Shown here piece after piece: positions 14,555-64,000 of a stretch of DNA of 64,000 bases (positions are counted from its first letter, which is position 1; the number at the start of each line of letters is the position of its first letter). The notes beneath the pieces were generated by a model. That model was not told the origin of the DNA, searched no databases, and worked only from the letters and a program-made list of their open reading frames with translations. Source of the DNA: a virus (taxonomy: Duplodnaviria > Caudoviricetes); the IMG/VR virus record IMGVR_UViG_2933330693_000001, positions 6,748-70,747 of that record. The stretch is one strand, 5' to 3'. Position numbers and translations under genes: made by a program.

Positions 14555-14814
14555 GCACACCACAGTTCGGCAGCCTGGAGTGGCAGCAGCAAGTCCGCAA
14601 CGGGCTCGAGCGCGCCTCACGCCAGCTCAACGAAGCGCTCGAGCAGACGGGCCGCATCCTCGCCGCCCAGGGCGCGATGGGGTGGGCGTTGCGCGGCGAC
14701 CTCGAAGCCACCCGCACAGCGCTCTACGGCATGAGCCCGGATCGGCTGCGTGAGATGTCCGCCGCCGCGGCCATGCTGGCGGCCCTGGCCGACGAGGAAC
14801 TGAGCGCCAGGTGA
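14551..14814 (+). CDS. Hypothetical helical protein
   Basis: Coupled ATG. Confidence 0.5.
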   Translation: MSTPQFGSLEWQQQVRNGLERASRQLNEALEQTGRILAAQGAMGWALRGDLEATRTALYGMSPDRLREMSAAAAMLAALADEELSAR

Positions 14815-23567: not shown

Positions 23568-23764
23568 CCTCCAGCGGCTGGGCGCGCGTCCAGCTCGGTC
23601 TCGCCGTCACGTGGATGCTGCTGATCGCACCGACGCTGATCTGGTGGCGCGACAGCGTCCTGTGGGTGGCGCTCATGTCGCTGTGGGCCAACATCGCCGC
23701 GCACCTGGCAGCCTGGCAGGCGGCCCGCACCGAGCGGAAGCTCGACGCGGGCGGTGCTAAGTGA
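23564..23764 (+). CDS. Small two-TM membrane protein
   Basis: WMLLIAPTLIWWRDSVLWVALMSLWAN. Confidence 0.6.
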   Translation: MTSSGWARVQLGLAVTWMLLIAPTLIWWRDSVLWVALMSLWANIAAHLAAWQAARTERKLDAGGAK

Positions 23765-25657: not shown

Positions 25658-25879
25658 ATGGCCAGCCCCACCCTGCCCGTCGTACTCCAGGTTGGCACCA
25701 CCCCGGCCGCCCAGATCGGCACCGTGGAAATCCCCATCGTCACGGGCCCCGCCAGCAAGGACCCCTCAGGCCACTGGCAGGTCGAAGTCCAGGTCGACCA
25801 GGACGAGCTCTGGCGGCGCATCGCCAGCCTGCTGCGCGACGCCGCCGACCTGATCGAGAAGGGGGCAACTGATGGCTAG
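25658..25879 (+). CDS. Hypothetical protein
   Basis: LPVVLQVG..IGTVE; overlaps portal start. Confidence 0.55.
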   Translation: MASPTLPVVLQVGTTPAAQIGTVEIPIVTGPASKDPSGHWQVEVQVDQDELWRRIASLLRDAADLIEKGATDG

Positions 25880-27908: not shown

Positions 27909-27914
27909 GCCGCC

Positions 27915-29375
27915 GTGGACATCGACGTGCCCCGCGCGTCCGCCCTCGTCAGCATCCCCGGTGTGGAGCTGGCCCAGGCCGGCACGTGGCGGCTCTCCTC
28001 GGGCGAGGCGACCATCACCCGCGACGACCTCACCGCCGCCATCGCCGCGCTCGACTGCCCCGCCGTCCGCAACCCGGTGCTCAAGCTGGGCCACGTGGAC
28101 CCGCGGTTCGACGGCGAGCCGGCGGTCGGCTGGGTGTCCGGGCTGCGCGCCGCCGACGACGGCAACACCGTGGTGGGCGACTACCGCGGCCTGCCCGCCT
28201 GGCTCGCCGACGTGCTGGCCAGCGCCTACCCCGACCGGAGCATCGAGGCGACCAGGGGATTCCGATGCCAGATCGGCCACACCCACCAGATGGTCATCAC
28301 CGCCGTCGCGCTGCTCGGCGTGGCCGCGCCCGGCATCGGAACGCTCGACAGCCTGCAAGACGTCGCCGCCCTCTACGACGTCGCCGCCTCCCACGGCAGC
28401 GAGGCGACGCCGGTCACCTACACGATCAAAGGAGGAGGGCCTATGCCCCCGCCCACGCCAGAGCTGGCGGCCGGCGTGTCCAGCGAGGACGTCCGGCGCC
28501 GCTACTACGAACGCGCCGGCTACTCCGACTGGATCTGCGAAATCCAGCTCGACCCGCTGCAGCTCATCGTCATGGACGACAGCAGCGGCAGTTACTACCG
28601 GGTTCCGATCGCCATGGCCGGCGACGACGTCGAGTTCGGCGAGCGGGTCGCCGTGAAGGTCGAGTACGTCGACAGGCCAGACAAGATGGCCGCCGGCACG
28701 CTGGTGTTCGCGTCCCGCGAGGAGTCGATCCCGCAGGACCTGCGCCCCCCCGACACCGGCGACGACCCGCCCGACAGCCGAGTGCAGACGGCCGGCATGG
28801 ACGCCGCACCCACCCCGGAGCCGCCCGAGCAGGACGGCCCGCAACCAGAGACTCCCGTCACCGACTCCCCGGTCGGCGGGCCAACCAAGGAGGACACTGT
28901 GCAGTTCAGTGACGAGCAGCTCGCGGACCTGCGAGCCAAGCTCGGCCTCCCCGCCGACGCTGACCTCGACCCGGCCGCTCTGCTGGCCGGCGTCGAGAAG
29001 CTCGCCGCCACTGGCGGTGACGGCTCGCCGGGGAAGACGCCGAAGAACGCGCCGGGCACCGTGACGGTGGACCGGCAGGTGTGGGACGACCTGCAGACCC
29101 GACTCAACAGGCTGGAGCAGGTGCGCGCCTCCCAGCAGCGCAACGAGCGGGAGCGGATGGTCGACGACGCGATCCGCGCCGGCAAGTTCGCGCCGAGCAG
29201 GCGCGACCACTGGCTGCGCGTCGCCGAGGCCGACCCGGAGGGCACCGCCCAGCTGCTGGCCGGCCTCACCGCGGGCACCGTCCCGGTCTCCGACCTGGGC
29301 CTGCCCGGCGGCGACGGCTTCGACGTGGACGCCGAGTTCGCCGACCTGTTCCCGCCCGCGCCGAAGGGGGCCTAG
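27915..29375 (+). CDS. Mu-like prohead protease/scaffold
   Basis: LKLGH...EPAVGWV...YPDRSIE...AVALLG; C-terminal VDDAIRAGKFAPSRRDHW scaffold. Confidence 0.82.
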   Translation: MDIDVPRASALVSIPGVELAQAGTWRLSSGEATITRDDLTAAIAALDCPAVRNPVLKLGHVDPRFDGEPAVGWVSGLRAADDGNTVVGDYRGLPAWLADVLASAYPDRSIEATRGFRCQIGHTHQMVITAVALLGVAAPGIGTLDSLQDVAALYDVAASHGSEATPVTYTIKGGGPMPPPTPELAAGVSSEDVRRRYYERAGYSDWICEIQLDPLQLIVMDDSSGSYYRVPIAMAGDDVEFGERVAVKVEYVDRPDKMAAGTLVFASREESIPQDLRPPDTGDDPPDSRVQTAGMDAAPTPEPPEQDGPQPETPVTDSPVGGPTKEDTVQFSDEQLADLRAKLGLPADADLDPAALLAGVEKLAATGGDGSPGKTPKNAPGTVTVDRQVWDDLQTRLNRLEQVRASQQRNERERMVDDAIRAGKFAPSRRDHWLRVAEADPEGTAQLLAGLTAGTVPVSDLGLPGGDGFDVDAEFADLFPPAPKGA

Positions 29376-29823: not shown

Positions 29824-30753
29824 ATGCCTGGAAGCTACCCGGCCGCGCCTCCCACCCTGAGCGGGGATCTGGAGACGATCAGCCGGTTTCTCAACAGCCC
29901 CACCTCTCTGCAGCGGCGCCTGCGCACGTTCCGCGACCTGCGGTTCGTCAGCGACCGGCTGCTCACCCAGCGGTTCCGCACCTCGGGCGGTGCGGTGCTG
30001 TACGAGATGGCGGAGCCTTTCGTGACCGACCGGGCTGTGACCGCGGTCGGCCCCGGCAGCGAGTACCCGGGCGCGAACGTGCCGACCGGCACGGCCGCCA
30101 TCGCCTCGGTCAGCAAGTGGGGCCAGAAGGTTCCGATCACCGACGAGGAGATCACCCGCAACGTGTACGGCGGCGCCGCCGTCGACCGGGTGCTGCGCAA
30201 GGTGGTCAACTCGATCATCAAGCAGGTCGACAGCGTGACGATGTCGGCCATCGCCAGCGCGGTGACGGACACGTTCGACGTCACCTCGGGCGGCGGCGCC
30301 GCCTGGACCGCCGCCACCCCGACGATCCTGCGCGACATCCTCGAAGCCAAGGCCGTCGTCGTCAGCAAGAACCTCGGCTACATGCCCGACACTCTCGCCC
30401 TCAACGACACCGCCTACGCGATCGTCATGTCCGACGAGAAGATCACTAACGCGCTGCGTCGGGAGACGCTCGACAGCCCCGTCTACACGGGCGAGGTCGA
30501 GGTCATCGCCGGGCTGCGCATCGTCGTCTCCCCGGCCATCACCACCCCGCTCGTGCTCGACAGCACGCAGCTGGGCGGCATGGCCGACGAGATGGCGTCA
30601 GCGCCCGGCTACGCCACCAGCGACCTGGCCGTCCAGGTCAAGAGCATCCGGGTGGACACCGCCGACAAGTGGGACCTGCAGGGCCGCCGCCTGACGGTGC
30701 CGATCGTCCAGGAGCCCGGCGCGGCCGTCGAGCTCACCAACACCGGCGTCTAA
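29824..30753 (+). CDS. Major capsid protein
   Basis: 309 aa after scaffold and cement genes; VGPGSEYP, KWGQKVPITDE, GYMPDTLAL. Confidence 0.85.
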   Translation: MPGSYPAAPPTLSGDLETISRFLNSPTSLQRRLRTFRDLRFVSDRLLTQRFRTSGGAVLYEMAEPFVTDRAVTAVGPGSEYPGANVPTGTAAIASVSKWGQKVPITDEEITRNVYGGAAVDRVLRKVVNSIIKQVDSVTMSAIASAVTDTFDVTSGGGAAWTAATPTILRDILEAKAVVVSKNLGYMPDTLALNDTAYAIVMSDEKITNALRRETLDSPVYTGEVEVIAGLRIVVSPAITTPLVLDSTQLGGMADEMASAPGYATSDLAVQVKSIRVDTADKWDLQGRRLTVPIVQEPGAAVELTNTGV

Positions 30754-35132: not shown

Positions 35133-38100
35133 ATGATGCCCGGTACCCCGCTGGCGGAGGCATTCGTACGCGTACGAGCCCTCACCGACAAGTTCAAGGA
35201 CGACGTCCAGAAGGGCTTCGAGGGCGTCGGCGACGACTTCGGCAAGCAGTTCACCCGCGATGCGTCCGCACGCCTGAAGGCCGAGCGGGGCGTCTTCGAG
35301 GCCGAAGGCGAGCAGATCGGCGGCGCCTCCGGGTCGGCGGCTGGCCGGGAGTTCGCCGACCGGATGAGGGAAAACGGCGTCAAGTTCGGCGACGACGCCA
35401 GCCCCTTCGTGGCCATCGGCAAGAAGCTGGGCGCCGAGGTCGGCGACGCCGCCGGCCGCGAGTTCGCCAAGGCCATGGGCAAGGAGGCGTCTGCAGGCTT
35501 CTCGCAGGCGCTCGACCCGATCAAGCGATTCCAGCTCCAGCTCGCGCAAGCGGAGCTGGCGGCGCGACGCATGGGCCTGGCGGCGAAGGAAGCTGCCGAG
35601 CGGGCCGAGGCCGCGAGCAAGAAGGCGGCTGAGGCGGCCGAGCAGGTCACCAAGGGGGAACTCGGCAAGGAGGAAGCGACCCGTCTGGCTGCTCTGGCTG
35701 CGCGCGAGCAGGAGAAGGCGGAGATCGCGGCGACGACCGCGGCGCTGGCGAAGGCGAAGGTGTCTGAGCGGGCGGCGCAGGTGTCGCAGGCGTACGCGAA
35801 GGCGCAGGCTGACGCGAGCCGGGAGACGGACAAGCTCAGCGCCGCTGTCCGGTCCCGGCTCAACCCGGATCTTGACCGGTCCGGCTCGGTGATGAGCGGC
35901 CTGCTCGGCATCTCGAAGAGTCTGGGCGGGGCGTTCGCCAGCGCCGCGTCTTCGTTGTCTCTGGTGGGGGCTGGGGCCGCTGGTGTGGCCGGGCTGGGGG
36001 CTGCGGCGGCGTCAGCGACCGGGTTCGTGGTGACGCTCGCGGCCGAGCTGGCGCCGCTGGGCGGGCTGCTCGCGGCGCTGCCCGGCGTCGCCTTGTCCGG
36101 GGCGGCGGCGTTCACGACGTGGAAGCTGGCCACCGGCGGGCTCGGCGAGGCCATGGGCGCCGCCCTGTCGGGCGATGTCAAGAAGCTGGATGCGGCGCTC
36201 GGGCAGCTCAGCGACAGCGGCCGGGCGTTCATCGGCGAGTTCCAGCAGACCATCCCGCTACTGAAGGGCTTCAAGGCCGCCGCGCAGGACGCCTTCCTGT
36301 CCCCGATCAGCGGCCGCCTCGCCGAGTGGGCGACGGCCGTAGCGGCGCTCAAGCCTGCCGTCGCCGGGCTGGCCGGCGAGTTCGGCGGCATGGTCCGCAC
36401 GGTCCTCGACTTCGCGACCGCATCGCAGTCGATCGCCCAGCTCGGCACGGTGCTGGGCGACACCCGCACCCTGCTCGGCGGCATCCGCGAGGCGTTGCAG
36501 CCGCTCCTGACAGGCTTCCTCGACCTGGGCGCGGTCGGCACGTCGTGGCTGGCCGGCATGTCGGGCGGACTCACGGACGTGCTGACGAAGTTCGGCCAGT
36601 GGATGTCCCGCATCGCGGAGTCGGGTCAGGCGTGGGCGTGGATGGACGCGGGCCTGGTCGTGCTCAAGCAGCTCGGCACCCTGTCCAAGGACCTCGTCGG
36701 CATCCTCTCCGGGATCTTCCAGGCGGCGCGGGAGGGCGGCACGAGCGCGCTGGGCGTGCTGGGCCAGCTCGTCTCGACGTTCAATCAGTGGGTCAATTCG
36801 GCTGGCGGCCAGCAGGTTCTCGTCACCGTCTTTCAGGCGCTCGACAAGGTCGGCCGTGCCCTGACCCCGGTGATCAACTCGCTGGGCGGGGCGATCGCGG
36901 CTATCGCCCCGGAGGCGGCCAAGGTGGCGACCGCTCTCGGCCCGGTGCTGGCCAAGGCGGTCGAAGTGCTCGGCAAGGGCATCGCTGCCATGGGCCCTGG
37001 GCTGGTCGCGATGGTGGAGGGGTTCGGCCGCATGGTCTCCGCGATCGGCCCGCTGGAGCCGCTCGGCCGGGCGCTCGGCGACGTGTTCGCCGCCCTCGGT
37101 GGCGCGCTGGCGCTGGTGGTGCCCGAAATCGGGAAGATCGCGTTGGCGCTGGCCCCCGCGCTGACAGCTGCTTTGAAGGCACTGGGGCCCGCGCTGGCAG
37201 CTCTCGGCCCTGGGCTGGTGGCGGTGGCGCAGTACTTGGCCAAGGCGTTCGCCGACCCCGCCATCGCGGCCGGGCTGCTCGCGCTGGGCAAGGGCATCGC
37301 CGACGTGCTGATCGCCGCCGCCCCCCTGCTGCCGGTGATCGCTCAACTGGCGGGCATCCTGGGCCAGGTCCTCGGCGGCGCCCTGACGAATCTCGGCGTG
37401 CTGCTGGGGCCGATCATCGCGGCGCTCGGCTCCGCGTTGGAGCCAGCTCTGCGGGCCGTCTCAGGCGCGCTGGGCATGCTGATTCCGCTGATGGAGCCGA
37501 TCTACAAGGCGTTCGGCGACATCGGCGCCGCGTTGATCACGCAGCTGCTGCCGCCGTTGCTGAACCTCATTCCGGTGATCATCAATTCGGTGATTCCAGC
37601 GTTCGCGCAGGTCGCCATGCAGATGCAGCCGTTGATTCCGCTGCTGGCCGACATCGCGGTCAAGTTGATCGAGATGCTGCCGGCCGTGCTGCCGGTGATA
37701 CCGCAGCTGACGGAGCTGGCTCTAGCGATCACGAGGGTGGGCCTGGTGGTGGCCGAACTGGTGGTCGCCGTCGCGCCGGCCGTCGAGCGGATCATCGGCG
37801 TTTTCCAGCACCTGTATGACACGCTGGTCGGCCACTCCATCATCCCCGATCTGATCAACGGGATGACGAAGTGGTTCCGCGACGGAGTCCAGTGGATCAA
37901 GGACGCCGTGTCGTGGTTCGGCCAACTGCCCGGCCTGATCGGAGGCTGGATGGGGTCCGTCCTCACCCAGGTCACCTCGGCCTGGAACAACATCCGGTCG
38001 ACGATCTCGGAGCGGATCGACAACATCCGGCAGACGATCTCCAACACGCTGAACAGCATCAGCGGCAACTGGCAGCAGGCGTGGGACGGCGCCCGCAACT

Positions 38101-38744
38101 ACGTCTCCGGCGCCTGGAACAACATCCGCAACGCCGTCGGCAGCGGCATCAGCTCCGTGCTCGGCACGGTCTCCGCGCTGCCGGGCCAGATCCAGGGGGC
38201 GCTCGGCGATCTCGGCGGACTGCTGTACAACTCCGGCCGGTCGATCATGCAGGGGCTGATCAACGGCCTGTACAGCATGTGGCAGGCCGCCTACAACTCC
38301 GCCAGCGAGATTCTCAACCACATCCGCAACCTCTTCCCGAGCAGCCCTGCCAAGGAAGGCCCCTTCAGCGGGAAGGGCTGGACGCTTCACTCCGGCCGGT
38401 CGATGATGACCGGCCTGGCCGACGGCATCGCGGGCCAGCAGGCAGCGGTCACGGGCGCGCTCGACGGCGTGCTCTCGGCCGGGGCCGCGACGCTGGGTGC
38501 AGGGTTGCAGGTGCCGTTGGCGGCGATGGCAGGACCGACGAGTGCGCCGGACTTCGCGGGCCCGTTCGGTGGTCCGGTTGGCGCGTCGCCGGTGGCTGCG
38601 GCTGGGGCCCGGGTGGTCAACGTGGAGAACCTGATCGTGCAGGGCGTGCTTGATCCCAGCAGCCCGGTGAGCTACAGGCGGATGGTGGAGCGGCTGCGCG
38701 AGGCGATCCGTGAGCTGGAGCAGGAGGAGTACGCCAATGGCTGA
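35133..38744 (+). CDS. Tape measure protein
   Basis: 1203 aa, Ala/Gly/Leu-rich; AEAFVRV N-terminus; W-periodic repeats; FPSSPAKEGPFSGKGW. Confidence 0.92.
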   Translation: MMPGTPLAEAFVRVRALTDKFKDDVQKGFEGVGDDFGKQFTRDASARLKAERGVFEAEGEQIGGASGSAAGREFADRMRENGVKFGDDASPFVAIGKKLGAEVGDAAGREFAKAMGKEASAGFSQALDPIKRFQLQLAQAELAARRMGLAAKEAAERAEAASKKAAEAAEQVTKGELGKEEATRLAALAAREQEKAEIAATTAALAKAKVSERAAQVSQAYAKAQADASRETDKLSAAVRSRLNPDLDRSGSVMSGLLGISKSLGGAFASAASSLSLVGAGAAGVAGLGAAAASATGFVVTLAAELAPLGGLLAALPGVALSGAAAFTTWKLATGGLGEAMGAALSGDVKKLDAALGQLSDSGRAFIGEFQQTIPLLKGFKAAAQDAFLSPISGRLAEWATAVAALKPAVAGLAGEFGGMVRTVLDFATASQSIAQLGTVLGDTRTLLGGIREALQPLLTGFLDLGAVGTSWLAGMSGGLTDVLTKFGQWMSRIAESGQAWAWMDAGLVVLKQLGTLSKDLVGILSGIFQAAREGGTSALGVLGQLVSTFNQWVNSAGGQQVLVTVFQALDKVGRALTPVINSLGGAIAAIAPEAAKVATALGPVLAKAVEVLGKGIAAMGPGLVAMVEGFGRMVSAIGPLEPLGRALGDVFAALGGALALVVPEIGKIALALAPALTAALKALGPALAALGPGLVAVAQYLAKAFADPAIAAGLLALGKGIADVLIAAAPLLPVIAQLAGILGQVLGGALTNLGVLLGPIIAALGSALEPALRAVSGALGMLIPLMEPIYKAFGDIGAALITQLLPPLLNLIPVIINSVIPAFAQVAMQMQPLIPLLADIAVKLIEMLPAVLPVIPQLTELALAITRVGLVVAELVVAVAPAVERIIGVFQHLYDTLVGHSIIPDLINGMTKWFRDGVQWIKDAVSWFGQLPGLIGGWMGSVLTQVTSAWNNIRSTISERIDNIRQTISNTLNSISGNWQQAWDGARNYVSGAWNNIRNAVGSGISSVLGTVSALPGQIQGALGDLGGLLYNSGRSIMQGLINGLYSMWQAAYNSASEILNHIRNLFPSSPAKEGPFSGKGWTLHSGRSMMTGLADGIAGQQAAVTGALDGVLSAGAATLGAGLQVPLAAMAGPTSAPDFAGPFGGPVGASPVAAAGARVVNVENLIVQGVLDPSSPVSYRRMVERLREAIRELEQEEYANG

Positions 38745-48936: not shown

Positions 48937-49218
48937 ATGGCTGGTGAAGTGGAGGTCCCGGAGTGGGATCCGGACGCGACGCGGGTCGTCTACGTGTACG
49001 AGGCGCTCGCCGACCACATCGCGCTCCGGATCGAGGCCGGCCACTGGAAGCCGGGCAATCCGCTGCCGGGTGAGCGCGCCTTGTCGGAGGAGTACGGGGT
49101 CGCGCTCGGCACGATCCGGCGCGGCCTGGATGTGCTGCGCGAGCGCGGGCTGGTGGTGACGTTGAAGTCCAAGGGGACGCTCGTGAAGCCGCAGGAGTCG
49201 CCGAGCGGGCAGGAATGA
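48937..49218 (+). CDS. GntR-family winged-helix regulator (HTH only)
   Basis: YEALADHI..WKPGNPLPGERALSEEYGVALGTIRRGL..KGTLV. Confidence 0.88.
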   Translation: MAGEVEVPEWDPDATRVVYVYEALADHIALRIEAGHWKPGNPLPGERALSEEYGVALGTIRRGLDVLRERGLVVTLKSKGTLVKPQESPSGQE

Positions 49219-49295: not shown

Positions 49296-49688
49296 TCACG
49301 CTTCTCCTCGGGCGGTCGTGAGCTGAAGGACGGGCTTGGCGATGTCGCGGTGCTCAACGTGAACGTGCGCGCCTGCCTCGCGCAGCTCGGCGGCGATCTC
49401 TTCGGCGACCGCGACGGATCGGTGCCGGCCGCCGACGCAGCCCGTGGCGATGCTCACCGGCAGGCCGGCCACGAGCAGCCCGCAGGTGAGGGCGGCGGTG
49501 TGGTCGATCAGCGTGCGGGCGCCGGGGGTGTCGAGGACGTGCTGCCGGACCTGCTCGTTGAGGCCGGTCAGGTAGCGCAGCGCCGGGTCGTGGTGCGGGT
49601 TGCGCAGGTTGTGCCGCAGGTCGAGGGTGATGTGCGCGGTCGGTGCGGGGGCGTGGCCGTACCCGAACGAGCTGATGGTGACGTTCAT
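49296..49688 (-). CDS. Stand-alone RapZ C-terminal-domain protein
   Basis: ISSFGY..LDLR..LRNP..LTG..IATGCVGGRHRSVAVAE. Confidence 0.82.
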   Translation of the reverse strand: MNVTISSFGYGHAPAPTAHITLDLRHNLRNPHHDPALRYLTGLNEQVRQHVLDTPGARTLIDHTAALTCGLLVAGLPVSIATGCVGGRHRSVAVAEEIAAELREAGAHVHVEHRDIAKPVLQLTTARGEA

Positions 49689-49834
49689 CGGCTGGCTCCT
49701 GCCGTGGCGGGCGTGCGCGGCACGTACTCGTTGTTGAGGTCGGCGGCGTAGACGGTGCGGCGGCAGTGCGCGCACCGGTAGACGATCGGCCCCTCGTCGA
49801 GAGGGCTGGCGCAGCGCGGGCAGTTGGGCGTCAT
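49685..49834 (-). CDS. Small Zn-ribbon protein
   Basis: MTPNCPRCASPLDEGPIVYRCAHC; coupled both sides. Confidence 0.55.
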   Translation of the reverse strand: MTPNCPRCASPLDEGPIVYRCAHCRRTVYAADLNNEYVPRTPATAGASR

Positions 49835-50181
49835 CACGCACGCTCCTCACTGATCAGCGCGAACGCCGGCGCGTCGTAGTCGCCGTACATCTCCTGGATC
49901 TCGCCGATCCGTTCCTGCAGCTCCTGCTCGGTGATGGCGTGGCACTCGGCGAGCACGTCGACGATCTCCTGCATCGCGGCGAGCGCATCTATCGAGGGGG
50001 AGCCGAGGTAGGTGCGTGCCGCCGAGATGAGGATCTCGACGAGCAGCCGCTGGTGCTCCTCCCCTTCGACGGTCCGCACCACGACGGAGACTCCCTGGGT
50101 GCGCAGGTGGTCGAGCAGCTCGGACCGGATGAGTCGCGGGCCGGCGGATGGGGGGCTGGTGTTGATGGTGGTTGGCGTCAT
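49834..50181 (-). CDS. Hypothetical protein
   Basis: Coupled; helical. Confidence 0.5.
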   Translation of the reverse strand: MTPTTINTSPPSAGPRLIRSELLDHLRTQGVSVVVRTVEGEEHQRLLVEILISAARTYLGSPSIDALAAMQEIVDVLAECHAITEQELQERIGEIQEMYGDYDAPAFALISEERA

Positions 50182-50460: not shown

Positions 50461-51248
50461 CCGTACGGCGCGCCCGTACGGAGTGGGGTGAGCCTGTACG
50501 GGCATGGCCGTACAGGTCAGCGGACAGCCCTTAGTACGGGCCGCGCGTCGCCCGTACGGGACGCCTCCTCGGCACCCGTACGGGTGGCGTCCGGAGCCTC
50601 CGTACGGGGCTCGTCCGCGACGTCCGTACGGGAGCCCGTACGGACGTCTTGCGCCGCATCCGTACGGGCTGGCGTACGGGTCTCGGAGGCGGCCTGCATG
50701 CGGGGCGTTTCGGCCGCACCTCGGGCGTCCTCGCGGGCATCCTTAACGACCTTCTCGCACCAGGAGCGGCCGTAGCCGGTGCGCGCCATCAACGCCTCGT
50801 AGTCAGGCTTCCAGTCATCCCCCGTCGTCGCGATGTCGCTGGCCAGCTCGGCAACCAGAGCGTCACGGTCGACGGTCGCGGGCGGCGTCTTGACCAACGT
50901 CTTGGGGGGCTTCGGGGCCGTAGTCGCGGTCTTGGCCGCTGCGGCGCGGGCAGGCTTAGGGGCGACCGGGCGGGCGGGTTCGGTCCGGTCCTCATCTCCC
51001 GTACGGGGCTTCTGTGCGGGCTCCTCGGCGCCCGTACGGCGGGCCCGTACGAGGCTGCTGTCGTCCGTACGAGGAGGCTCCGTACGGGGCCCGTACGGGG
51101 GCGGCGTACGGATGGTCTCCGGCGTCCGTACGGGCTCGGGCAGCGCCGGGCGTACGGGCTCCGGAGCGGGGGTCCGTACGGGTTCGGCGACCACCGTCGT
51201 ACGGGTCTCCGGAGCGCTCTGCGTACGGACGGACGCGGGCTCCGTACG
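50461..51248. repeat. Dispersed CGTACG (mostly CCGTACGG) palindromes, about 22 copies in two clusters
   Basis: About 9 copies at 50461-50680 and about 13 at 50999-51248 (hand count). Confidence 0.85.
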
Positions 51249-51716
51249 GCGGGTCTTGCGCCGGCCGAGGGCCTCGCTGATCGCCTCAATCAGGATGATC
51301 AACAGGTGGAGGCTGAGCGCCAACGCCACCGCGGGAATCGCGGAGACGGCGCCCTGCTGCCACCCATCCAGGTCCACCGCAGCCCCCTTGGACTGGGTGG
51401 CGTGCAGGGCGTTGCACGCGATCGAGATGATCACGCCCGTCAAGACGACGAACCAGGCGTAGCCCGTCTTCTTCTCCAGCATCTTCAACACGAGGGCGGC
51501 CATCGTGCCCACCGTCATCGCGCCATCCACACTGACCGGCATCAGCCAAGACAGACCCCGGTCGATGTGGGCGGCTTCCGACACGGCGGTGATGGCGTCG
51601 AAGGACAGGACGAACGCCCCCACCACGACCGCGATCAGCGCAAACACCGCCACGGCGATCATCGTGACGAGCTTGCCGTCGAGCTTCGGCGTCTCGCTGT
51701 GGTCCAGGCTGTTCAC
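50517..51716 (-). CDS. DUF2637/Spd-like membrane protein with repeat-rich tail and HTH-like segment
   Basis: AFVLSFDAI..LSWLMPVSVDG..SIACNALH..VSAIPAVAL; LMARTGYGRSWCEK. Confidence 0.78.
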   Translation of the reverse strand: MNSLDHSETPKLDGKLVTMIAVAVFALIAVVVGAFVLSFDAITAVSEAAHIDRGLSWLMPVSVDGAMTVGTMAALVLKMLEKKTGYAWFVVLTGVIISIACNALHATQSKGAAVDLDGWQQGAVSAIPAVALALSLHLLIILIEAISEALGRRKTRRTEPASVRTQSAPETRTTVVAEPVRTPAPEPVRPALPEPVRTPETIRTPPPYGPRTEPPRTDDSSLVRARRTGAEEPAQKPRTGDEDRTEPARPVAPKPARAAAAKTATTAPKPPKTLVKTPPATVDRDALVAELASDIATTGDDWKPDYEALMARTGYGRSWCEKVVKDAREDARGAAETPRMQAASETRTPARTDAAQDVRTGSRTDVADEPRTEAPDATRTGAEEASRTGDARPVLRAVR

Positions 51717-51754: not shown

Positions 51755-52255
51755 TTACGCGGGGACGTCGCCGCTGATGAACCGGCCTCGGTAGGGGAGC
51801 TTTCGGCCGGAACGGATGTGGCTGTAGGCGGCGGCGTAGGTGTCGCCGAGCTCGTCCGGGGCGGCCATCAGCCGGTTCGTGGCGTACTCGACGCGGCGCA
51901 GGGCGGCGTACAGGATCTCCAGGGCCGCCTGCAGGGCGACGACGTAGTCGGTGGGCGTGTGCTCGTCGACCAGCGCCAGCCGCTCCTCGCAGTCGGCGAT
52001 CATGCTTCTGATCTGCGACGCTTGGGCGGACAGCTCGGCTTCGAGGTCGACGAGCGCGTTGATGAAGTCGATGTCGTTGCGCCACGGCCCGGTCGCCGTG
52101 CAGGCGGTCATGCCGAGGGTGACGGCGGCGGCGATGACGCTGCGGTAGCTTGCCGCGGCCAGGCCGGTCGCGGCGCACCTGCCGACCATGCTTGTGGCGG
52201 TGTGGGCGTGGTCGGTGGTGTCGGCCAGGGCGACTGCTGCGTTCAGGATGGACAT
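51755..52255 (-). CDS. Helical protein with C-terminal LPYxGR motif
   Basis: Ends TYAAAYSHIRSGRKLPYRGRFISGD; GAGG RBS. Confidence 0.6.
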   Translation of the reverse strand: MSILNAAVALADTTDHAHTATSMVGRCAATGLAAASYRSVIAAAVTLGMTACTATGPWRNDIDFINALVDLEAELSAQASQIRSMIADCEERLALVDEHTPTDYVVALQAALEILYAALRRVEYATNRLMAAPDELGDTYAAAYSHIRSGRKLPYRGRFISGDVPA

Positions 52256-52313
52256 AACTCCTCGATTCCGTAACTCTCCGTAGGTTCGATCAAGCTTTAG
52301 AGGGGCGTTGAAG

Positions 52314-52412
52314 GCGATCGGCTCATCGACGCATCGACTCATCTCCCGGCCCCTATATGGGGGCTCTCAGGGCCGCATGAGCCGATCCCAGATGAGCCGA
52401 TGAGCCGATCCG
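52314..52412. repeat. clt-like repeats downstream of traB-like gene
   Basis: ATGAGCCGAT at 52377, 52392 and 52400; inverted copy at 52317-52326; one-mismatch inverted copy at 52333-52342. Confidence 0.6.
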
Positions 52413-52418
52413 AGACGG

Positions 52419-54479
52419 TCACGCACTGTGCTCGCCCGCTCGGAGGTGCCAGCGGGTCGCCGGCCCCTGTCCACGCGGCTCAATGACGCCCTCGGCGCGC
52501 AACTGGTTCAAGAACCGCACCGTCTGCGCGTCGCTGTAGCCGATCTCCGCAGCGACATCCCGCTTGGCCGCAGCCCCATCGCCGAGCAGCGCGAGAACCC
52601 GGGAGCGCACCTCCGCCGGCACGGGCGATGCCGCCGTCTGCTCGACCTGGTTGAACATCTCCCAGCGCGCGCGCGAGTGCTCGCGTACCTGCGCGGCCTC
52701 CGCCGCCTCCAACGACGGCACCAACCGGAGGGACGCCCTGATGCCCTCCCGCTCGGCCGCCCGGTCATCGGGCGTGGACGGCAGGTCAGGCTGACTCTGC
52801 TCGGCCGGCTCCTCCGCCGCGCCGCTCGCCCCGTCATCCTGCAGCGCGGCGAACAGCTTGCCCAGCTTCGGGTCTGCCAGGACATCCCACTCCAGCGGCG
52901 ACGCCTCCCGTCCCTCGGCGATCCGCGAGACGTCGTCCAGGTCCTTCAGCTTGAAGGTGCGGCCCTTGCTGTTGTTGCCGCTGACGTCGGCGATGCAGAC
53001 AACGCCCGGCTTGCCCTCGCCGTACTTCGTCATGTCAGGCAGTTCCAGGCCGAGCTCGCCGGCGGCGAGCGCCATCTCGTTGCGCCGGGACACCTTGAGG
53101 AACACGAACCTGTCGAGGTTGGCGCGGATGTTGCCGCCGCCCAGCCACTGCGCGCTGCCGCGCTGGCCGACCAGGATGACGCCGACCGACTCCGACCGGC
53201 CCTTGCTGGTGATCGTGGTCAAGGCGGCCTGCGCCCGCTGGGCCAGAGCGTCGCCGCCGGTCACCAGCGCGTCGACCTCGTCCACGACGACGATGACCGC
53301 AGGATGGCCTGGGTGGGGCTGGAAAACGGCGTCGGTGTTGTGCGCGGCGCGGTGCGAGATCAGCGCCGCAGCGAACTCGAGAATCTTGACGGCCTTGGCC
53401 CGCTCCTGCGGCCCGCACGCTGCCGCGCCCAGCGCGCCGGAGTCGCGCCAGCGGCGCATGTCCTTGGCCTTGGACACGTCGATGCCGAACACCAAGGCGT
53501 TGTCGGCCGCGGTCAGCCGCTCCAACACGTTGTTGAGCAGCACCGTCTTGCCGCCACCCTTGATGGCGACGACCATGATGTGCGCTGCGCCGTCCTCGTC
53601 CCACACAACTAGCTCCAGCGGCCGGCCGGTCTCCGGGTCCTGGCCGACGATCGGCGGCTGGCGCACATCGGCGACGTCCGGGAGCGAGATTTCCGGGTTG
53701 GGGTCGAGGAGCGGGTGGGGGATGACGTCGGCCCACGGGTCCTTGAGCCGTAGCGAGATCCACAGTTGGCCGGCGACGCGGCCTTCCTTCACCTGGACGC
53801 GGCCGGTGGAGATGCCGAAGTCCTCGGCGACCCGCTCGGCGAAGGAGCGGGTGACGAATGCGCTGGCGCGCTTGCCGGTGCCGCGCGTGTCCAGCAGCGC
53901 CTGCTCGCCGAGCCGGGTTGGCTCCGCGCTCACTACGCGCGCCCCGTCGATGCCCCAGCCGGCGAAGTACGCCTCCCAGTCGATGCGCGGCACCTCGGGC
54001 GTCACCACCTCGACGGGGCGCGGCTTGAGGCCGACCCGGTGCAGGGCGTAGCCGACGCCGAACGCTCCCAGGTACATCCAGGTGGCCAGCCCGGACGGGC
54101 CCGCAGCGACGCCGGCTTCGGCGGCGGCGGCTAGCCAGGTGCCGGAGGCTGCGGTGGCGGCGGTCGCGCCGACGATGCGTGTGCCCTTCAGCCGGTTCAT
54201 GGCGGTGGCGTAGGTCGCGATCGACCCGGCGATGGTGACCATGCCGATCCCCCACCACGGCAGGTGGGTGGCGTGGGCCAGCGCACCGGCCCCATACAGG
54301 GCGGCGCCGCCCAGGAACGGTGCCCGCTCGGCTGGGGCTGCCCGGAACCACGCGTAGGTGGCGCGGGCGGCGGCTTTGAGGTTGCTGGGGGGCGGCGGCT
54401 CGTCGCTGTTCTGGGGGGCCTCGACCGCGTGGTGGCTGTGCGGCGGGGCGGGGCACCGCTCGGCGGTCGATCGGCTCAC
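52419..54479 (-). CDS. traB: TraB-like FtsK/SpoIIIE translocase
   Basis: N-terminal TM helices; AIKGGGKT Walker A; VIVVVDE Walker B; SKGRS, GQR; C-terminal winged helix. Confidence 0.8.
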   Translation of the reverse strand: MSRSTAERCPAPPHSHHAVEAPQNSDEPPPPSNLKAAARATYAWFRAAPAERAPFLGGAALYGAGALAHATHLPWWGIGMVTIAGSIATYATAMNRLKGTRIVGATAATAASGTWLAAAAEAGVAAGPSGLATWMYLGAFGVGYALHRVGLKPRPVEVVTPEVPRIDWEAYFAGWGIDGARVVSAEPTRLGEQALLDTRGTGKRASAFVTRSFAERVAEDFGISTGRVQVKEGRVAGQLWISLRLKDPWADVIPHPLLDPNPEISLPDVADVRQPPIVGQDPETGRPLELVVWDEDGAAHIMVVAIKGGGKTVLLNNVLERLTAADNALVFGIDVSKAKDMRRWRDSGALGAAACGPQERAKAVKILEFAAALISHRAAHNTDAVFQPHPGHPAVIVVVDEVDALVTGGDALAQRAQAALTTITSKGRSESVGVILVGQRGSAQWLGGGNIRANLDRFVFLKVSRRNEMALAAGELGLELPDMTKYGEGKPGVVCIADVSGNNSKGRTFKLKDLDDVSRIAEGREASPLEWDVLADPKLGKLFAALQDDGASGAAEEPAEQSQPDLPSTPDDRAAEREGIRASLRLVPSLEAAEAAQVREHSRARWEMFNQVEQTAASPVPAEVRSRVLALLGDGAAAKRDVAAEIGYSDAQTVRFLNQLRAEGVIEPRGQGPATRWHLRAGEHSA

Positions 54480-54555
54480 GGCCAGGTCCCTTTCAGACGA
54501 TGGGATTCATAGGGCGGCTGGCCCCGGCCGGCGGTAGGCCGGGGCCCGGGGGCTG

Positions 54556-55725
54556 TTAGACGGCCTCGCCGGTCATCCAGCGGCCGTTGTAGGGCAGGAC
54601 CACGCCGTTGGCGACGGCCTTCATGACCTCCTCGTAGGTGGTGACGAACCGCTGGTGCGCGGCGGTCATGGCCCGGGTCAGCTCCATGACGTGCTCGGCG
54701 AACTCGCCCAAGCCCTGCACGGAGTTGGGGTCGAGGCCGAGGCTGTTGAGGCAGTCTTCGTGGAGCTGCTCGTACGCCTCGGCGTAGCCGCAGATGCCGG
54801 CCACCTCGCCGGTCATGAAGTTGATGAGCTCGGCGTCGGACTCGGGGTGGAAGTTCGCGACCCGCTGCGCCAGCTGCTGCCAGTCGGCGGGCGCGTACGC
54901 GGACACGTCGCTGCTGGCCTGCTCCGTGCTGTTGGGCGCGGCGGGGGCGATGGTGGTTGCGGTCATGTCGGTGTCCTCCTCGGTTGGCTGCGCGCCGTTG
55001 CGACGCGCAGGGTCGGTGGTGGTCTGGTCCGGGGCCGCCTCGTCGGGGGGCGGGTCGTTGGGGGCGCGGTAGAACGTGATGCGGAAGCCGCACCCGCAGG
55101 TGACGGTGCGATCGAACTGCGCGCTGGGGATGACGGCCTTCACCCGGGTCCCGCAGCGGGGACAATCGGTGCTCCCCAAGAGGTCTGGGTCTCCGTCGGC
55201 AGGTTCGTCGGTGACCGGCTGAACGGCGACGGACTGAGCGGCTTCCTTGCGCTTCTGCCACGCCGTGATGGAGTCCCACGCTCGGGCTCTGCGGGCCGCC
55301 GGAGAGTCATCGGCGGTCGGGGCGCCACCGCTGCCCTCAGACTTCGGGATGCGCTGCCACAGGCGGGGCGCCCGCTCAGAGCGTTCCTCCCAGCGGCGGG
55401 TCGCCGCATCGGTGACGGACCGCGCCGCCCGCACGGCAGCCTCGCCGGTCTTGGCCTTCACCTTCTCCACCACCGGCGCCGCCTTCTCAGCGACCTTGCC
55501 CTGCGCCTTCCGGGTCAGCGCCCCCGCCGCTCGGCCAGCGAGCTCGCCCAGCCCGGGAAGGACGCGCATGGCTTCGACCTTGGGCGCGCCCGAGGCGTTC
55601 CAGCCGCGCACCGCCCACGACGGCCTCGCCTTGTCGGCCTCGGTCCGGTTGGAGTGCCGGGCAATCGCGGCGATGGCGAAGATGACGACAGACGCGGCGA
55701 TGAACAGCTCAACCATCTGCTCCAC
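54556..55725 (-). CDS. Membrane-anchored protein with Zn-ribbon and C-terminal helical LPYxGR domain
   Basis: N-terminal TM; CPRC..CGC; ends TYEEVMKAVANGVVLPYNGRWMTGE. Confidence 0.6.
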   Translation of the reverse strand: MEQMVELFIAASVVIFAIAAIARHSNRTEADKARPSWAVRGWNASGAPKVEAMRVLPGLGELAGRAAGALTRKAQGKVAEKAAPVVEKVKAKTGEAAVRAARSVTDAATRRWEERSERAPRLWQRIPKSEGSGGAPTADDSPAARRARAWDSITAWQKRKEAAQSVAVQPVTDEPADGDPDLLGSTDCPRCGTRVKAVIPSAQFDRTVTCGCGFRITFYRAPNDPPPDEAAPDQTTTDPARRNGAQPTEEDTDMTATTIAPAAPNSTEQASSDVSAYAPADWQQLAQRVANFHPESDAELINFMTGEVAGICGYAEAYEQLHEDCLNSLGLDPNSVQGLGEFAEHVMELTRAMTAAHQRFVTTYEEVMKAVANGVVLPYNGRWMTGEAV

Positions 55726-55951
55726 CTCCCTCCCCGCGGACGGGCGGCGCCTGCAGCTCGCGGAGGGAGATGACGGCGGTGACGCCGACGGCCACCATCA
55801 GCGCGCCGCCGAGCAGGGCGAGCACCGGGAGGCCGAACAGGTACCGGGCCGCCAGGATGACGATCAGGCTGATCAGGACGTCCATCGTGCTGGGCCGGTT
55901 GTGCCACATGCGGCGAGCGACCTGGCCAGGCAACGGGCGGGGGCGGCTCAT
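55709..55951 (-). CDS. Small two-TM Spd-like protein
   Basis: Two hydrophobic helices. Confidence 0.55.
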   Translation of the reverse strand: MSRPRPLPGQVARRMWHNRPSTMDVLISLIVILAARYLFGLPVLALLGGALMVAVGVTAVISLRELQAPPVRGEGGGADG

Positions 55952-56361
55952 CACATCGCCCCGCTGATGGTCGACCAGCCGGCGGCACTGATCTGGCGGA
56001 CCCACGCCAGCGACCCGCCGGCGGTGGCGTACAGAATCGGGAAGAACGCGATCATGCCGTAGGTGGAGGGTCGGAGCCCGTGGCCGTCGAACACGTCGAT
56101 CGCAACCGCGACGCCGAGCAGGACGACCAGGCCGACCACGATGTGACCAGAGGTGACCTGGCCGATGCTGAAGTCGAGCCCCTTGAGCCAGTCGCCGATG
56201 AACGTGGCCGCGAGTCCGGTCCCGCCGAGGAACATCAGCGCGCAGATGACCCTGTTCAGGACGGCGGACGGGATGCGGCTGAGCTTGCCGCGCTTCTTGT
56301 GGATGAGGATTCCGAGCGCCAGGCACAGCAGCCCGAACGCGATGGCAGGCGTGTCACCCAT
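55951..56361 (-). CDS. Multi-TM Spd-like membrane protein
   Basis: About four TM helices. Confidence 0.6.
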   Translation of the reverse strand: MGDTPAIAFGLLCLALGILIHKKRGKLSRIPSAVLNRVICALMFLGGTGLAATFIGDWLKGLDFSIGQVTSGHIVVGLVVLLGVAVAIDVFDGHGLRPSTYGMIAFFPILYATAGGSLAWVRQISAAGWSTISGAM

Positions 56362-56363
56362 GG

Positions 56364-56822
56364 TCAGGAACCTCCAGTGATGATCAGGGCGGTGATGAAC
56401 AGCCAGGCGAGGTGCCACGACTGGTCGAGGGCGTACGCGCCGGTCCCGGTCGGGGCGGACTCGGGCATGCCGAGCCGGTAGAAGTCGCCCTTGCCGATCC
56501 GCTCGGCGAGAGCGGCGAGGGTGTGTCGGCGGTCGGCCCAGTAGTGGCTGACGGCGGCGAGGGCGAGTCCGACTGCGGCGGCGATGCCGGAGGGGACCCA
56601 GCCGGTGGCCAGCCACAGCAGCGCGAGGGCGACCAGCTTGGTGAGGGTCAGCGTGATGACGTGGTCGAGGCACGCGAGCCGCCCGGCCCGGCCGGGCGCG
56701 CCCTTGGCCATGGCCTGGCGGTGGGTTTGCGCCCAGTGGTCGCCGACCTGGTGGCCGACGTACAGGGCGACGAAGGTCGCGGAGAACATCATCAGGCTGA
56801 TCTGCGCGTCGGGGGCGATCAC
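56364..56822 (-). CDS. DUF3307-like membrane protein
   Basis: GHQVGDHWAQT..SHYWADRR..LDQSWH. Confidence 0.75.
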   Translation of the reverse strand: MIAPDAQISLMMFSATFVALYVGHQVGDHWAQTHRQAMAKGAPGRAGRLACLDHVITLTLTKLVALALLWLATGWVPSGIAAAVGLALAAVSHYWADRRHTLAALAERIGKGDFYRLGMPESAPTGTGAYALDQSWHLAWLFITALIITGGS

Positions 56823-58900: not shown

Positions 58901-59025
58901 ACACCCCATGCTGAGCTATGTGCATATGGTCAGTCAAGGCCAACCGGAGACGGTGAGTGGATTGCTACCAGGACGGTGTGTTCAACTGGTGGCACCATGT
59001 TGTGCCAAGTGCAGTAGGAGCATCG

Positions 59026-59430
59026 GTGACCGACCCGACCGGCCGCACGCTCTACCTCCAGATCGTCGACGACCTCCGGTCACAGATCGCATCCGGAGAA
59101 CTACGGGTAGGCGACCCCATCCCCTCCACCACCGCGCTCCAGAAGCAGTACGGCCACTCCATCACCGTGGTCCGCAAAGCCGTCGAAGTCCTCCGCAACG
59201 AGGGCCTCGTCTTCGGCCAGCCCGGCAAAGCCGTGTACGTCCAAGCCACCCCCGCAAGCGTCGAGGCCGAACGCGTCAGCGTCGAAGACCTCGCCCAGCA
59301 GGTGGCCGACCTCCGGACACAGGTCATGGAACTCCGCGGCACCGTCGAGCAGCTCTACACGCGACTCGGCCACCCGTACCCCAACGACGACGCCGGCCAG
59401 CCCGCGCGCCACCGCAAGACCGGAACGTGA
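59026..59430 (+). CDS. GntR-family repressor (Kor-like), divergent from xis
   Basis: LYLQIVDDLRSQIASGELRVGDPIPST..VVRKAVEVLRNEGLV..PGKAVYV; C-terminal coiled coil. Confidence 0.85.
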   Translation: MTDPTGRTLYLQIVDDLRSQIASGELRVGDPIPSTTALQKQYGHSITVVRKAVEVLRNEGLVFGQPGKAVYVQATPASVEAERVSVEDLAQQVADLRTQVMELRGTVEQLYTRLGHPYPNDDAGQPARHRKTGT

Positions 59431-62643: not shown

Positions 62644-63873
62644 ATGGCGTACATCCGCCGCCTGCCGAGCGGCCTATGGCAGGCCACCGTCCGCATGCCG
62701 AACGGCCAGCGCACCACCAAGAGCAACAGGCTCAAATCCGTGGTCGAGAAGTGGGCCAAGGCCACCGAAGCCAAATTCGATCAGGGCGACATCCGCGACC
62801 CGAAAGCCGGCCAGATCAAGGTCGCCGACTGGTACGCCCGCTACGCGGCCGCCCGCGTCATCGAAGCCCCAACCCGGGCCAAGAACGACTCGCTGTGGCG
62901 CACCCACTGCAAGGACCGGTGGGGCGACTGGCCCATGCAGGCCGTCCAGCGGGTCGACGCCCAGGCGTGGGTCGGCGACCTGCAGGAGACGCGCCGCGCC
63001 CGCCACCGCGGCCGGCCCGCCGCATCCTTCGACGACCCCGACGAAATCCCGACCCTGTCGGCGGCCACGATCCACGACATCGTGCACCTGATGACCAGCA
63101 TGTACAAGGCGGCCATCAAGCAGGACCCGCCGATCGTGCTCACCAACCCGTTCCTCGACCTGGAGCTGCCGAAGCGTGGCGCCACCCAGGTCGAGTTCTA
63201 CGAGCACGCCGAGGCCGATGCCCTGTACGCGGCCATGGAGCGCCTGCACGGCCCGAAGTGGCGGACCCTGGCCGAGCTCGGCATGGACGTCGGGCTGCGG
63301 CCAGGAGAGATTTACGGGCTGCACGGGCACCGCGTGGACTGGATCCGCGGACTGCTGTCGGTGGTGGACGTGTCCACCCGGCAGGGGCTGCGCGAGTACC
63401 CCAAGAGCATGAAGTCGAACAGGACGGCGCCGGTGCCGCCGCGGACGTTGGAGGGGATGAGCCGGCTGATGCAGGGCCGGCCGCGGACCGCGTTGGTGTT
63501 CACCGCGCCGGAGGGCGGGCCGGTGGACGACGGCGACTTCCGCAACCGGATCTGGTACCCGGCGGTGGATGCGGCCCGGCTGTGCGGCAACCGCTCGCCG
63601 GGGGAGGCCCGCGACGGCGAGGTGTTCGTCGAGGGGGAGTGCGGGGCTGTGTGCGTCAGCCCGACGCATGGGATCCGCCGCTTCTCGCCGAGGATCATGC
63701 GGCACACCGCGGCGTCGTGGCTGGTTCAGGACGGGGTGCCGCTGTACGACGTGCAGGCGCTGCTGGGCCACGAGTCGTTTGAGACCACGCAGCGTTACGC
63801 GCATCTGGCTCCGGACGCCCACGACAAGGTCGTCCAGTCGTGGAAGCGGCGTGCGTCCGCGAACCCTGGTTGA
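62644..63873 (+). CDS. int: Tyrosine integrase
   Basis: AYIRRLPSGLWQA arm-binding N-terminus; GLRPGE, PKS, RIMRHT, LLGH, TTQRY. Confidence 0.93.
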   Translation: MAYIRRLPSGLWQATVRMPNGQRTTKSNRLKSVVEKWAKATEAKFDQGDIRDPKAGQIKVADWYARYAAARVIEAPTRAKNDSLWRTHCKDRWGDWPMQAVQRVDAQAWVGDLQETRRARHRGRPAASFDDPDEIPTLSAATIHDIVHLMTSMYKAAIKQDPPIVLTNPFLDLELPKRGATQVEFYEHAEADALYAAMERLHGPKWRTLAELGMDVGLRPGEIYGLHGHRVDWIRGLLSVVDVSTRQGLREYPKSMKSNRTAPVPPRTLEGMSRLMQGRPRTALVFTAPEGGPVDDGDFRNRIWYPAVDAARLCGNRSPGEARDGEVFVEGECGAVCVSPTHGIRRFSPRIMRHTAASWLVQDGVPLYDVQALLGHESFETTQRYAHLAPDAHDKVVQSWKRRASANPG

Positions 63874-63944: not shown

Positions 63945-63953
63945 ACCTGCGGG

Positions 63954-64000
63954 TCGGGGTGGCGGGATTTGAACCCACGACCTCTTCGTCCCGAACGAAG
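63954..64000 (-). tRNA. tRNA-Pro(CGG), 3' portion (5' end beyond window); likely att core
   Basis: Reverse complement CTTCG-TTCGGGA-CGAAG anticodon arm, GTGGG-TTCAAAT-CCCGC T-arm, acceptor 3' strand ...CCCCGA. Confidence 0.88.

Follow-up and report, generated by a model that had tools for sequence, protein, structure and literature searches.

In TraB-type conjugation a single essential protein suffices for primary transfer, and the helper proteins that accompany TraB show little conservation and are barely understood. Type VII and type IV systems have FtsK-like ATPases that recognise C-terminal signals. Streptomyces TraB is the double-stranded DNA pump of conjugation; its C-terminus recognises 8-bp clt repeats and it is subject to control by a GntR repressor, as described in PMC4447253. 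The same paper reports, for plasmid pSVH1, a set of small proteins encoded beside the TraB-type gene under GntR control and mostly without known families (Orf108, Orf140, Spd79, Spd198 and SpdB2). In two-hybrid assays, Spd198 and the C-terminal domain of SpdB2 bound the C-terminal recognition domain of TraB, Orf140 and Spd79 bound its N-terminal part, and a multiprotein translocation complex was proposed (PMC4447253). We describe here a related three-gene unit in a 64,000-nt stretch of DNA, hereafter the window, which comprises bases 6748-70747 of the 70,747-bp IMG/VR virus record IMGVR_UViG_2933330693_000001. In this unit a TraB/FtsK-like ATPase gene lies between the genes of two proteins, designated A and B, that share a conserved C-terminal tail. 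The three genes are co-directional on the minus strand and close together, and their positions, along with those of the other features discussed, are collected in Table 1.

Judged by sequence comparison, A and B are homologous over their last ~50 residues and not detectably elsewhere. A single BLASTP comparison of the two proteins returned one ungapped alignment of 38 residues at the C-termini (12 identities, 25.4 bits, E 0.001), and nothing beyond the tail scored better than E 3.9. The initial annotation, which had described two open reading frames (ORFs) with a common ungapped C-terminal motif and otherwise unrelated sequences, was borne out on these points; both frames are present, with a coding-type third-position GC content (0.87-0.91 in A and B, 0.87-0.92 across A, the ATPase and B). 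Profile-profile comparison gave a probability of 95.9% (E 6.4e-9) for alignment A1 (7 sequences) against A2 (19 sequences), and 97.5% (E 8.1e-12 over 52 columns) for A4 (12 sequences) against A6 (24 sequences). Only the C-terminal 46-52 columns were aligned in this way, so the homology is limited to the last ~50 residues. A strict regular expression for the tail, applied to six frames of the window, matched the C-termini of A and B only, and a looser six-residue pattern yielded one extra match in a non-coding frame (54250-54267).

The consensus of the tail is Y-x9-G-x3-P-x2-G-R-[WF]-x2-G. Within the 23 tails aligned from the window and 11 related loci, the Y, G, P and G-R are invariant (23/23) and one further G is nearly so. 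These positions correspond to Y140, G150, P154, G157, R158 and G162, invariant in the A family, and to Y364, G374, P378, G381, R382 and G386, which do not vary in the B family; in both families conservation is highest in the tail. A search of PDB sequences with the tail profile produced none at E <= 0.001, the best being a lectin at 0.0064. The literal string LPYNGRW, the one motif string used, had no occurrence in the literature searched, and the shared C-terminal motif was not met in the available parts of PMC4447253 and PMC3218068, supplementary tables aside.

Linkage of the tail pair to a TraB-like gene is near-obligate. The order B, ATPase, A was recovered by tblastn in 11/11 loci from viral and genome contigs, and the TraB-like gene is the sole other gene that is constant in all 11. 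The tail regular expression matched 20 of the 22 expected C-termini in these loci, the two remaining ones being variant tails in the A proteins of L001 and L009. Whole genomes contained exactly two tail matches, ~2.9 kb apart, in 5/5 cases. An order-level sample of 301 genomes included 12 with matches, and 11 of these have a pair separated by 2.8-3.1 kb; one of the 12 has an additional, third copy at a distance of 27 kb, and another has only one copy. In a distant group of B homologues from metagenomes, a TraB-profile match occurred no more than 1.5 kb downstream of the first tail in 33/39 assessable loci, a second tail followed 2.3-4.2 kb downstream in 19/22 assessable loci, and the viral loci of the group had both (2/2). 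The initial annotation had let its proposal turn on conservation of the motif in homologues and on linkage to FtsK-type genes; both are seen, the former in the 23 aligned tails and the latter in 11/11 loci by tblastn and in 33/39 distant loci by profile.

The tail is widespread among database proteins. Against 1.84 billion representative proteins, its profile retrieved 297 clusters at E <= 1e-3, of which 84 reached E <= 1e-10, and it was present in 192/193 of the proteins gathered. The end of the match lies within 5 residues of the C-terminus in 152 of these 192, at 6-12 residues in 18, at 13-30 in 9 and at more than 30 in 13. Two flavours can be distinguished: A-like tails (L-G-[ED]-T-Y...; 90 proteins, median length 174 aa) and B-like tails (F-x3-Y-x-E-V...; 91 proteins, median length 337 aa), with 11 proteins in neither class. 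Named tail-bearing members are all from Streptosporangiales genera, and the unit was found in Nonomuraea, Microbispora, Streptosporangium, Sphaerisporangium and Actinomadura as well as in uncultured high-GC soil bacteria. The distant B group derives from soil and peat metagenomes with 65-78% GC and retains the whole C-terminal domain of ~125 residues. When the last 124-130 residues of B were used as the tblastn query, nothing was obtained at E <= 0.01 from 72,556 plasmid records, and the phage collection gave a single match at E = 1. A class-level sample of 401 genomes had the tail in 2, one of them the reference genome itself, a count that is a floor because few candidates per genome were scored. 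One 59-kb metagenome contig (L044/L076) carries two TraB-like genes and three tail-bearing proteins, and on it one A-type tail is internal, with ~290 further residues following.

By the layout of its sequence, the ATPase is a divergent TraB and not an EccC. Its one Walker A motif is at residue 305, its N-terminal region is hydrophobic and rich in Gly/Ala, and a winged helix lies at the C-terminus; one P-loop followed by a C-terminal winged helix is the layout of TraB, on which the assignment is based. Its family profile matched FtsK (2ius) best among PDB entries (E 2.8e-5), and SmtB/ArsR-type winged-helix chains matched profile positions 606-675 at E 0.0018 and weaker. Various winged-helix Pfam families were found among the family members, FtsK_SpoIIIE in 2/12 (best E 3e-5) and AAA_22 in 7/12, and the PHROG match was to an FtsK/SpoIIIE-like family (E 8e-8). 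Because the family match is weak, we regard the protein as a divergent member of the FtsK/SpoIIIE-like class. With it as the tblastn query, 72,556 plasmids and 50,697 phages yielded nothing at E <= 1e-5. Assignment to EccC/EssC was considered and rejected, since one Walker A in 686 aa with a C-terminal winged helix contrasts with the several FtsK-like domains of that type, three in EccC. Within residues 1-60 (54300-54479), a conserved Cys/His stretch precedes the hydrophobic region, with the consensus R-x2-A-x-R-C-P-x2-P-H-x2-H-A-V across 12 aligned members.

Protein A is soluble and all-helical, and its homologues begin at the same MSIL start. The AlphaFold2 model, for which the mean predicted local distance difference test score (pLDDT) is 84.6, contains three short N-terminal helices, a long hairpin (residues 61-94 and 102-136), a short helix at 138-148 that bears T-Y-x9, and a tail of low confidence. 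Protein B consists of an N-terminal transmembrane helix (residues 1-25, hydrophobic and followed by basic residues), a variable middle part with a zinc-ribbon-like Cys4 segment that is kept in most, not all, aligned homologues, and a C-terminal domain of ~125 aa, conserved and helical, with the tail at its end. The last 130 residues of B (pLDDT 80.9) were modelled as a helix and a long hairpin (38-68 and 74-113), ending in a small beta-hairpin over V-L-P / Y-N-G / R-W-M. The long helical hairpins of the two models agree with the ~100 aa of helix that had been predicted ahead of the motif. Protein A has no hydrophobic segment at a Kyte-Doolittle hydropathy of 1.6 or above, and the CPRC...CGC segment of B is also absent from it. 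From this arrangement we infer that both tails face the cytoplasm.

Neither protein matched a Pfam, NCBIfam or PHROG family. Relatives in a collection of 5.8 billion proteins (6 of A, 18 of B) are named 'hypothetical' or are nameless and have no Pfam domain; a Pfam match was likewise obtained for 0/24 members of the A family, and a match to a relevant Pfam family for 0/20 members of the distant B group. Foldseek searches of the PDB with the A model and the B C-terminal model gave no match at E <= 0.001, and a search of BFVD with the B model gave none. VIA-align returned generic helical bundles and hairpins only, the best being CorA at Z 10.9 and a designed hairpin at 8.6, a range that is uninformative for helical models. 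In the ESM Atlas, B fell into unnamed clusters only (score at most 0.89), and A had no usable feature match.

Table 1. Positions in the window of the three-gene unit, its neighbourhood and the landmarks of the surrounding element
Feature	Position	Strand	Basis
Terminase	23761-25299		
Portal	25854-27908		
Protease	27909-29375		
Major head protein	29824-30753		
Tape measure	35133-38744		
GntR-type regulator, TraR/KorA-like position	48937..49218	+	Pfam GntR, E 1.5e-14
Array of 8-bp palindrome CCGTACGG, candidate clt-like repeat	50461..51249	.	15/18 window copies here
DUF2637 membrane protein, directly downstream of A, facultative neighbour	50517..51680	-	Pfam DUF2637, E 1.2e-11
Protein A, 166 aa plus stop, soluble, all-helical	51755..52255	-	ORF; AlphaFold2 pLDDT 84.6
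Tail motif of A, residues 139-163, T-Y ... S-G-D	51767..51841	-	BLASTP, family alignment
Operator-like 11-mers between TraB stop and A start	52316..52412	.	Repeat count
TraB/FtsK-like translocase, 686 aa	52419..54479	-	PDB profile match, Pfam, PHROG, Walker A
Protein B, 389 aa plus stop	54556..55725	-	ORF, alignment, AlphaFold2
Tail motif of B, residues 363-387, T-Y ... T-G-E	54565..54639	-	BLASTP, family alignment
Cys4 zinc-ribbon-like segment of B, residues 188-212	55090..55164	-	CPRC at 188, CGC at 210
Small multi-pass membrane protein upstream of B	55951..56673	-	ORF as listed; true start probably internal
Second GntR-type regulator	58957..59430	+	Pfam GntR, E 5.5e-15
Tyrosine integrase, right end of element	62644..63873	+	phrog_1 integrase, E 2.1e-48
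Right copy of 48-bp terminal repeat	63953..64000	.	Repeat at both contig ends

The window unit resembles Streptomyces TraB systems and the integrative and conjugative elements of actinomycetes (AICEs) in the hydrophobic N-terminus, single P-loop motor and C-terminal winged helix of its ATPase, in the GntR regulators and 8-bp repeat arrays nearby and, at the related locus L004, in the presence of NUDIX, Prim-Pol and integrase genes. It differs from them in the strong divergence of the ATPase, in which the Pfam FtsK_SpoIIIE model is matched by so few members, and in its location within an att-bounded record that also holds a complete siphovirus-type structural module. The Spd and Orf proteins of the Streptomyces plasmids are the nearest counterparts of A and B. 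Unlike these, A and B are paralogous in their last 50 residues, are held in a fixed order around the ATPase and, for the C-terminal 124 residues of B, have no match in the plasmid records; no shared C-terminal motif is described for the pSVH1 proteins in the available part of PMC4447253, supplementary tables aside.

The tail is probably the means by which A and B attach to the pump or to each other. We tentatively favour the former, namely that A and B are accessory subunits of a TraB-type conjugation module whose tails putatively dock on TraB, and we consider this quite possible while stopping short of calling it likely. We take A and B to be conserved, so far unnamed accessory proteins of a double-stranded DNA translocation module such as AICEs possess. 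B is held in the membrane by its single N-terminal helix, with its bulk on the cytoplasmic side, and A is soluble. The tail module of ~50 residues comprises the end of a long helix followed by a short beta-hairpin with the pattern [LM]-P-x-x-G-R-[WF]-x-[ST]-G, and would act as a docking element for one common partner, most likely the TraB hexamer with its several equivalent sites; docking may lead to assembly or regulation of the DNA pump at the membrane. The small proteins around traB of pSVH1, which bind TraB, provide a precedent for docking. AlphaFold2 confidence is low at the tail, with pLDDT below 50 over residues 157-166 of A and 54 over the final 10 residues of B, as would be expected if the segment folds on a partner. 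The A and B flavours have the same hairpin residues across hundreds of clusters, which fits a shared third partner more than a mutual interface that would be prone to drift. Covariation supplies a lead as to the site. In the set of 32 distinct tail pairs, G-D-F replaces G-R-W in both tails at L081 only, and the TraB of this locus alone has Gln where 50/50 other rows have Glu (Glu215 of the window protein), the Glu215 column being the only invariant acidic one among 27 invariant TraB columns. A contact between the tail Arg and TraB Glu215 is predicted on this basis.

Several observations weigh against docking on TraB. The ATPase is remote from Streptomyces TraB, with no tblastn match at E <= 1e-5. 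The covariation lead comes from one divergent lineage, and because L081 alters 4 of the 27 invariant columns, the chance that these would include the acidic one is ~0.15. In L056, L059, L063 and L075, Asp stands at the Arg position of the A tail and the B tail keeps Arg; a change confined to the A tail, in one clade, is a poor fit with both tails using an identical pocket. In TraB of these four loci, Arg replaces the hydrophobic or small residue found elsewhere at a winged-helix position (window Leu629), and Arg is also present there in L081 and L062. No TraB-profile match was found after the first tail in L040, L055, L061, L076, L077 and L079, nor was a second tail found in L051, L054 and L076. 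Of these, L061 and L079 resemble decayed remnants. L054, which has no tail downstream of TraB, has two B-type tail proteins in tandem just upstream of it, so that two tails per TraB are kept, and L055, too short to reach TraB, has a tandem pair of the same kind. Finally, the helical parts of the A and B tails are conserved each in its own way, which also suits a heterodimer.

A rival view, which that last observation also favours, is that the A and B tails pair mutually, forming a pseudo-symmetric heterodimer that works with TraB and in which the tail is not the TraB contact. The flavours occur 1:1 (90 A-type against 91 B-type), two per TraB, as such pairing would have it, and B has Lys for Thr three residues on from the exchanged position in L056, L059 and L063, not in L075, which may compensate the charge of the Asp in A. 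The possible compensation is confined to one clade, however, the hairpin residues are identical in both flavours where a mutual interface could drift, and both tail proteins are B-type in L054 and L055. We judge mutual pairing unlikely, if worth keeping in view. Binding to some other partner, be it a conserved host factor, DNA contacted by a hairpin resembling a wing, or an adaptor for a protease through which the levels of A and B are controlled, appears improbable. With its exposed Arg and Trp/Phe, the hairpin might lodge in a groove of DNA or protein, the succession helix-Gly-hairpin recalls the recognition helix and wing of winged-helix proteins, and both A and B face the cytoplasm. Against this, the tail profile resembles neither the TraB winged helix nor any other part of TraB (probability 0.2%) and, as given above, no PDB sequence closely enough for E <= 0.001; moreover, in the genomes examined, the tail was confined to the vicinity of TraB-like genes, with exactly two copies per genome in 5/5, which argues for a partner encoded within the unit. 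The idea that the tail mimics the TraB wing was itself rejected at that hhalign probability of 0.2%. Chance or compositional resemblance with no function could be entertained from the pairwise BLASTP E of only 0.001 and from the amino-acid bias that high-GC genomes impose. It is refuted by the conservation of the tail, seen in the profile-profile E of 8.1e-12, the 23/23 tails with invariant residues, the 297 clusters and the fixed position and gene order, and its probability is practically nil.

The initial annotation had taken A and B for a possible heterodimeric pair of substrates or activators of the ATPase, by comparison with the WXG100 proteins that EccC handles. Taken as a C-terminal export or recognition signal, the tail would mark A and B as substrates of the FtsK-like ATPase. 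A helical hairpin followed by a conserved C-terminal segment, encoded beside an FtsK-like ATPase gene, speaks for this, the tail ends no more than 12 residues from the C-terminus in 170/192 proteins, and the reading of C-terminal signals by the ATPases of type VII and type IV systems is a parallel. The ATPase, with one P-loop and a winged helix, is however laid out like TraB, a DNA pump, and clt-like arrays of 8-bp repeats adjoin the unit. The transmembrane anchor and zinc-ribbon-like Cys4 of B suggest a resident protein of the cytoplasmic face. From 0 to ~20 variable residues follow the motif, and it is internal in 13/192 proteins, so a free C-terminus is not required. With W-x-G and a WXG100 Pfam match also missing, export of A and B is given very little credence. 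A broader version, in which a TraB-family motor would read the tail as a signal and through it recruit and move proteins (for example A together with DNA into the recipient), or in which the motor would be switched on only by docked tail-bearing adaptors, we hold to be very improbable. Were it true, an FtsK-like conjugation motor regarded as 'DNA-only' would at the same time be a machine that reads signals, as are the coupling ATPases of type IV and type VII systems.

The family relationship to WXG100 and type VII secretion could not be upheld. W-x-G is absent from A and B, whose hairpin turns read L-V-D-E-H-T-P and G-L-D-P, respectively, neither protein has a WXG100 Pfam match at E <= 0.1, the ATPase has a single P-loop and B is membrane-anchored. 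In Foldseek, WXG100 chains appeared at ranks 30 and 45 only, with E > 3, and helical hairpins gave matches to many folds, at Z <= 8.6. Type VII core genes (EccB, EccD, EccE, MycP, EssA/EssB) were not among the ~30 window proteins scanned, a scan that was not a dedicated search for them. The likeness consists of a helical hairpin with a C-terminal segment beside an FtsK-like ATPase gene, and of proteins in pairs; in contrast, A has 166 aa and B has 389 aa with a membrane anchor, where a WXG100 hairpin has ~100 aa. Type VII secretion is thus possible as an analogy only, that of a C-terminal element read by an FtsK-like ATPase.

A hairpin of 12 residues with an invariant Gly-Arg and an aromatic residue, together with a candidate acidic contact on the pump, provides a handle for studying pump assembly or gating. 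The anchored partner, the pump and the soluble partner form a conserved and recognisable three-gene unit spanning ~300 protein clusters, and the tail may serve as a sequence signature for divergent conjugation modules that are mostly missed by standard FtsK_SpoIIIE models.

The remaining neighbours of the unit are inconstant. Across the 11 loci, tblastn detected a homologue of the small membrane protein upstream of B in 5 (L003, L005, L006, L007 and L008), GntR homologues upstream of B in 6 and a DUF2637 homologue next to A in 3 (L006, L008 and L011), with a weak DUF2637 match upstream of B in L009. RapZ_C-like proteins occur in 2, L004 and L010, directly downstream of A. In the window, a protein with a RapZ C-terminal domain (PF22740, E 3e-28) is encoded at 49296-49850 on the minus strand, within the mobile module; this domain is RNA-adaptor-like and was unexpected in a conjugation module. 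The stretch from the TraB stop to the A start contains GATCGGCTCAT in three direct copies and one inverted copy around a GC-rich stem, and GAGCCGATC is also present at the TraB start (54469-54477), overlapping the start codon. These repeats look like operators, and A may for this reason be under its own regulated promoter.

Repeats of a second kind were found close by. The palindrome CCGTACGG has 18 copies in the window against 1.58 expected, a number reached by 0/100 shuffles, and its array sits in the repeat-rich 3' half of the DUF2637 gene with copies often 12 or 24 bp apart. Arrays of the same 8-mer are present in L006, L008, L056, L058, L060 and L067, arrays of other 8-mers adjoin the unit in L003, L004, L005, L007 and L011, and 8-mer arrays lie beside the unit in 11/20 other loci examined. 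They look like clt repeats, and their assignment as TraB recognition sites is uncertain: the recognition helices of TraB do not track the 8-mer, near-identical ones (L005 and L006) being paired with different 8-mers.

The record that carries the unit begins and ends with an identical sequence of 48 bp, a pair of direct, att-like terminal repeats which in our reading resembles the 3' end of a tRNA. A tyrosine integrase gene lies next to the right copy. Phage structural genes for terminase, portal, protease, major head, tape measure and tail proteins span 23.7-43 kb of the window and form a complete structural module of the siphovirus type, and the TraB-type conjugation module occupies 47-59 kb of the same att-bounded record. 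The core of the 48-bp repeat has one copy only inside the window, and a search of the record for an internal att remnant that would split it into a prophage and an AICE found none. Since the record is att-bounded at both ends and has no internal copy, the TraB module lies inside one element together with the tailed-phage structural module; the element is perhaps a hybrid of phage and AICE or else an old fusion. One may ask on this account whether such an element has two routes out of the cell, as a virion and by conjugation.

The term 'phage FtsK', used for the ATPase in the initial annotation, holds in part. The gene does belong to an att-bounded, prophage-like record; the unit is also found in L004, where NUDIX, Prim-Pol and integrase genes, which we take to be a typical AICE backbone, lie downstream of the three genes, and in genomes without a match to the window portal. 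The portal had no match in 10/10 genomes carrying the unit and in 3/3 related viral records, results that show little as they had no positive control, and the terminase family phrog_38 gave one 21-bit match among 5 records. In L006, an N-acetylmuramoyl-L-alanine amidase gene (Amidase_2, E 4.5e-21; 13885-14586, minus strand) is located just past the DUF2637 gene, as is a gene for a 711-aa product that belongs to no known family, both in the opposite orientation to it. In this L006 resembles the window, in which phage tail and lysis-side genes border the unit.

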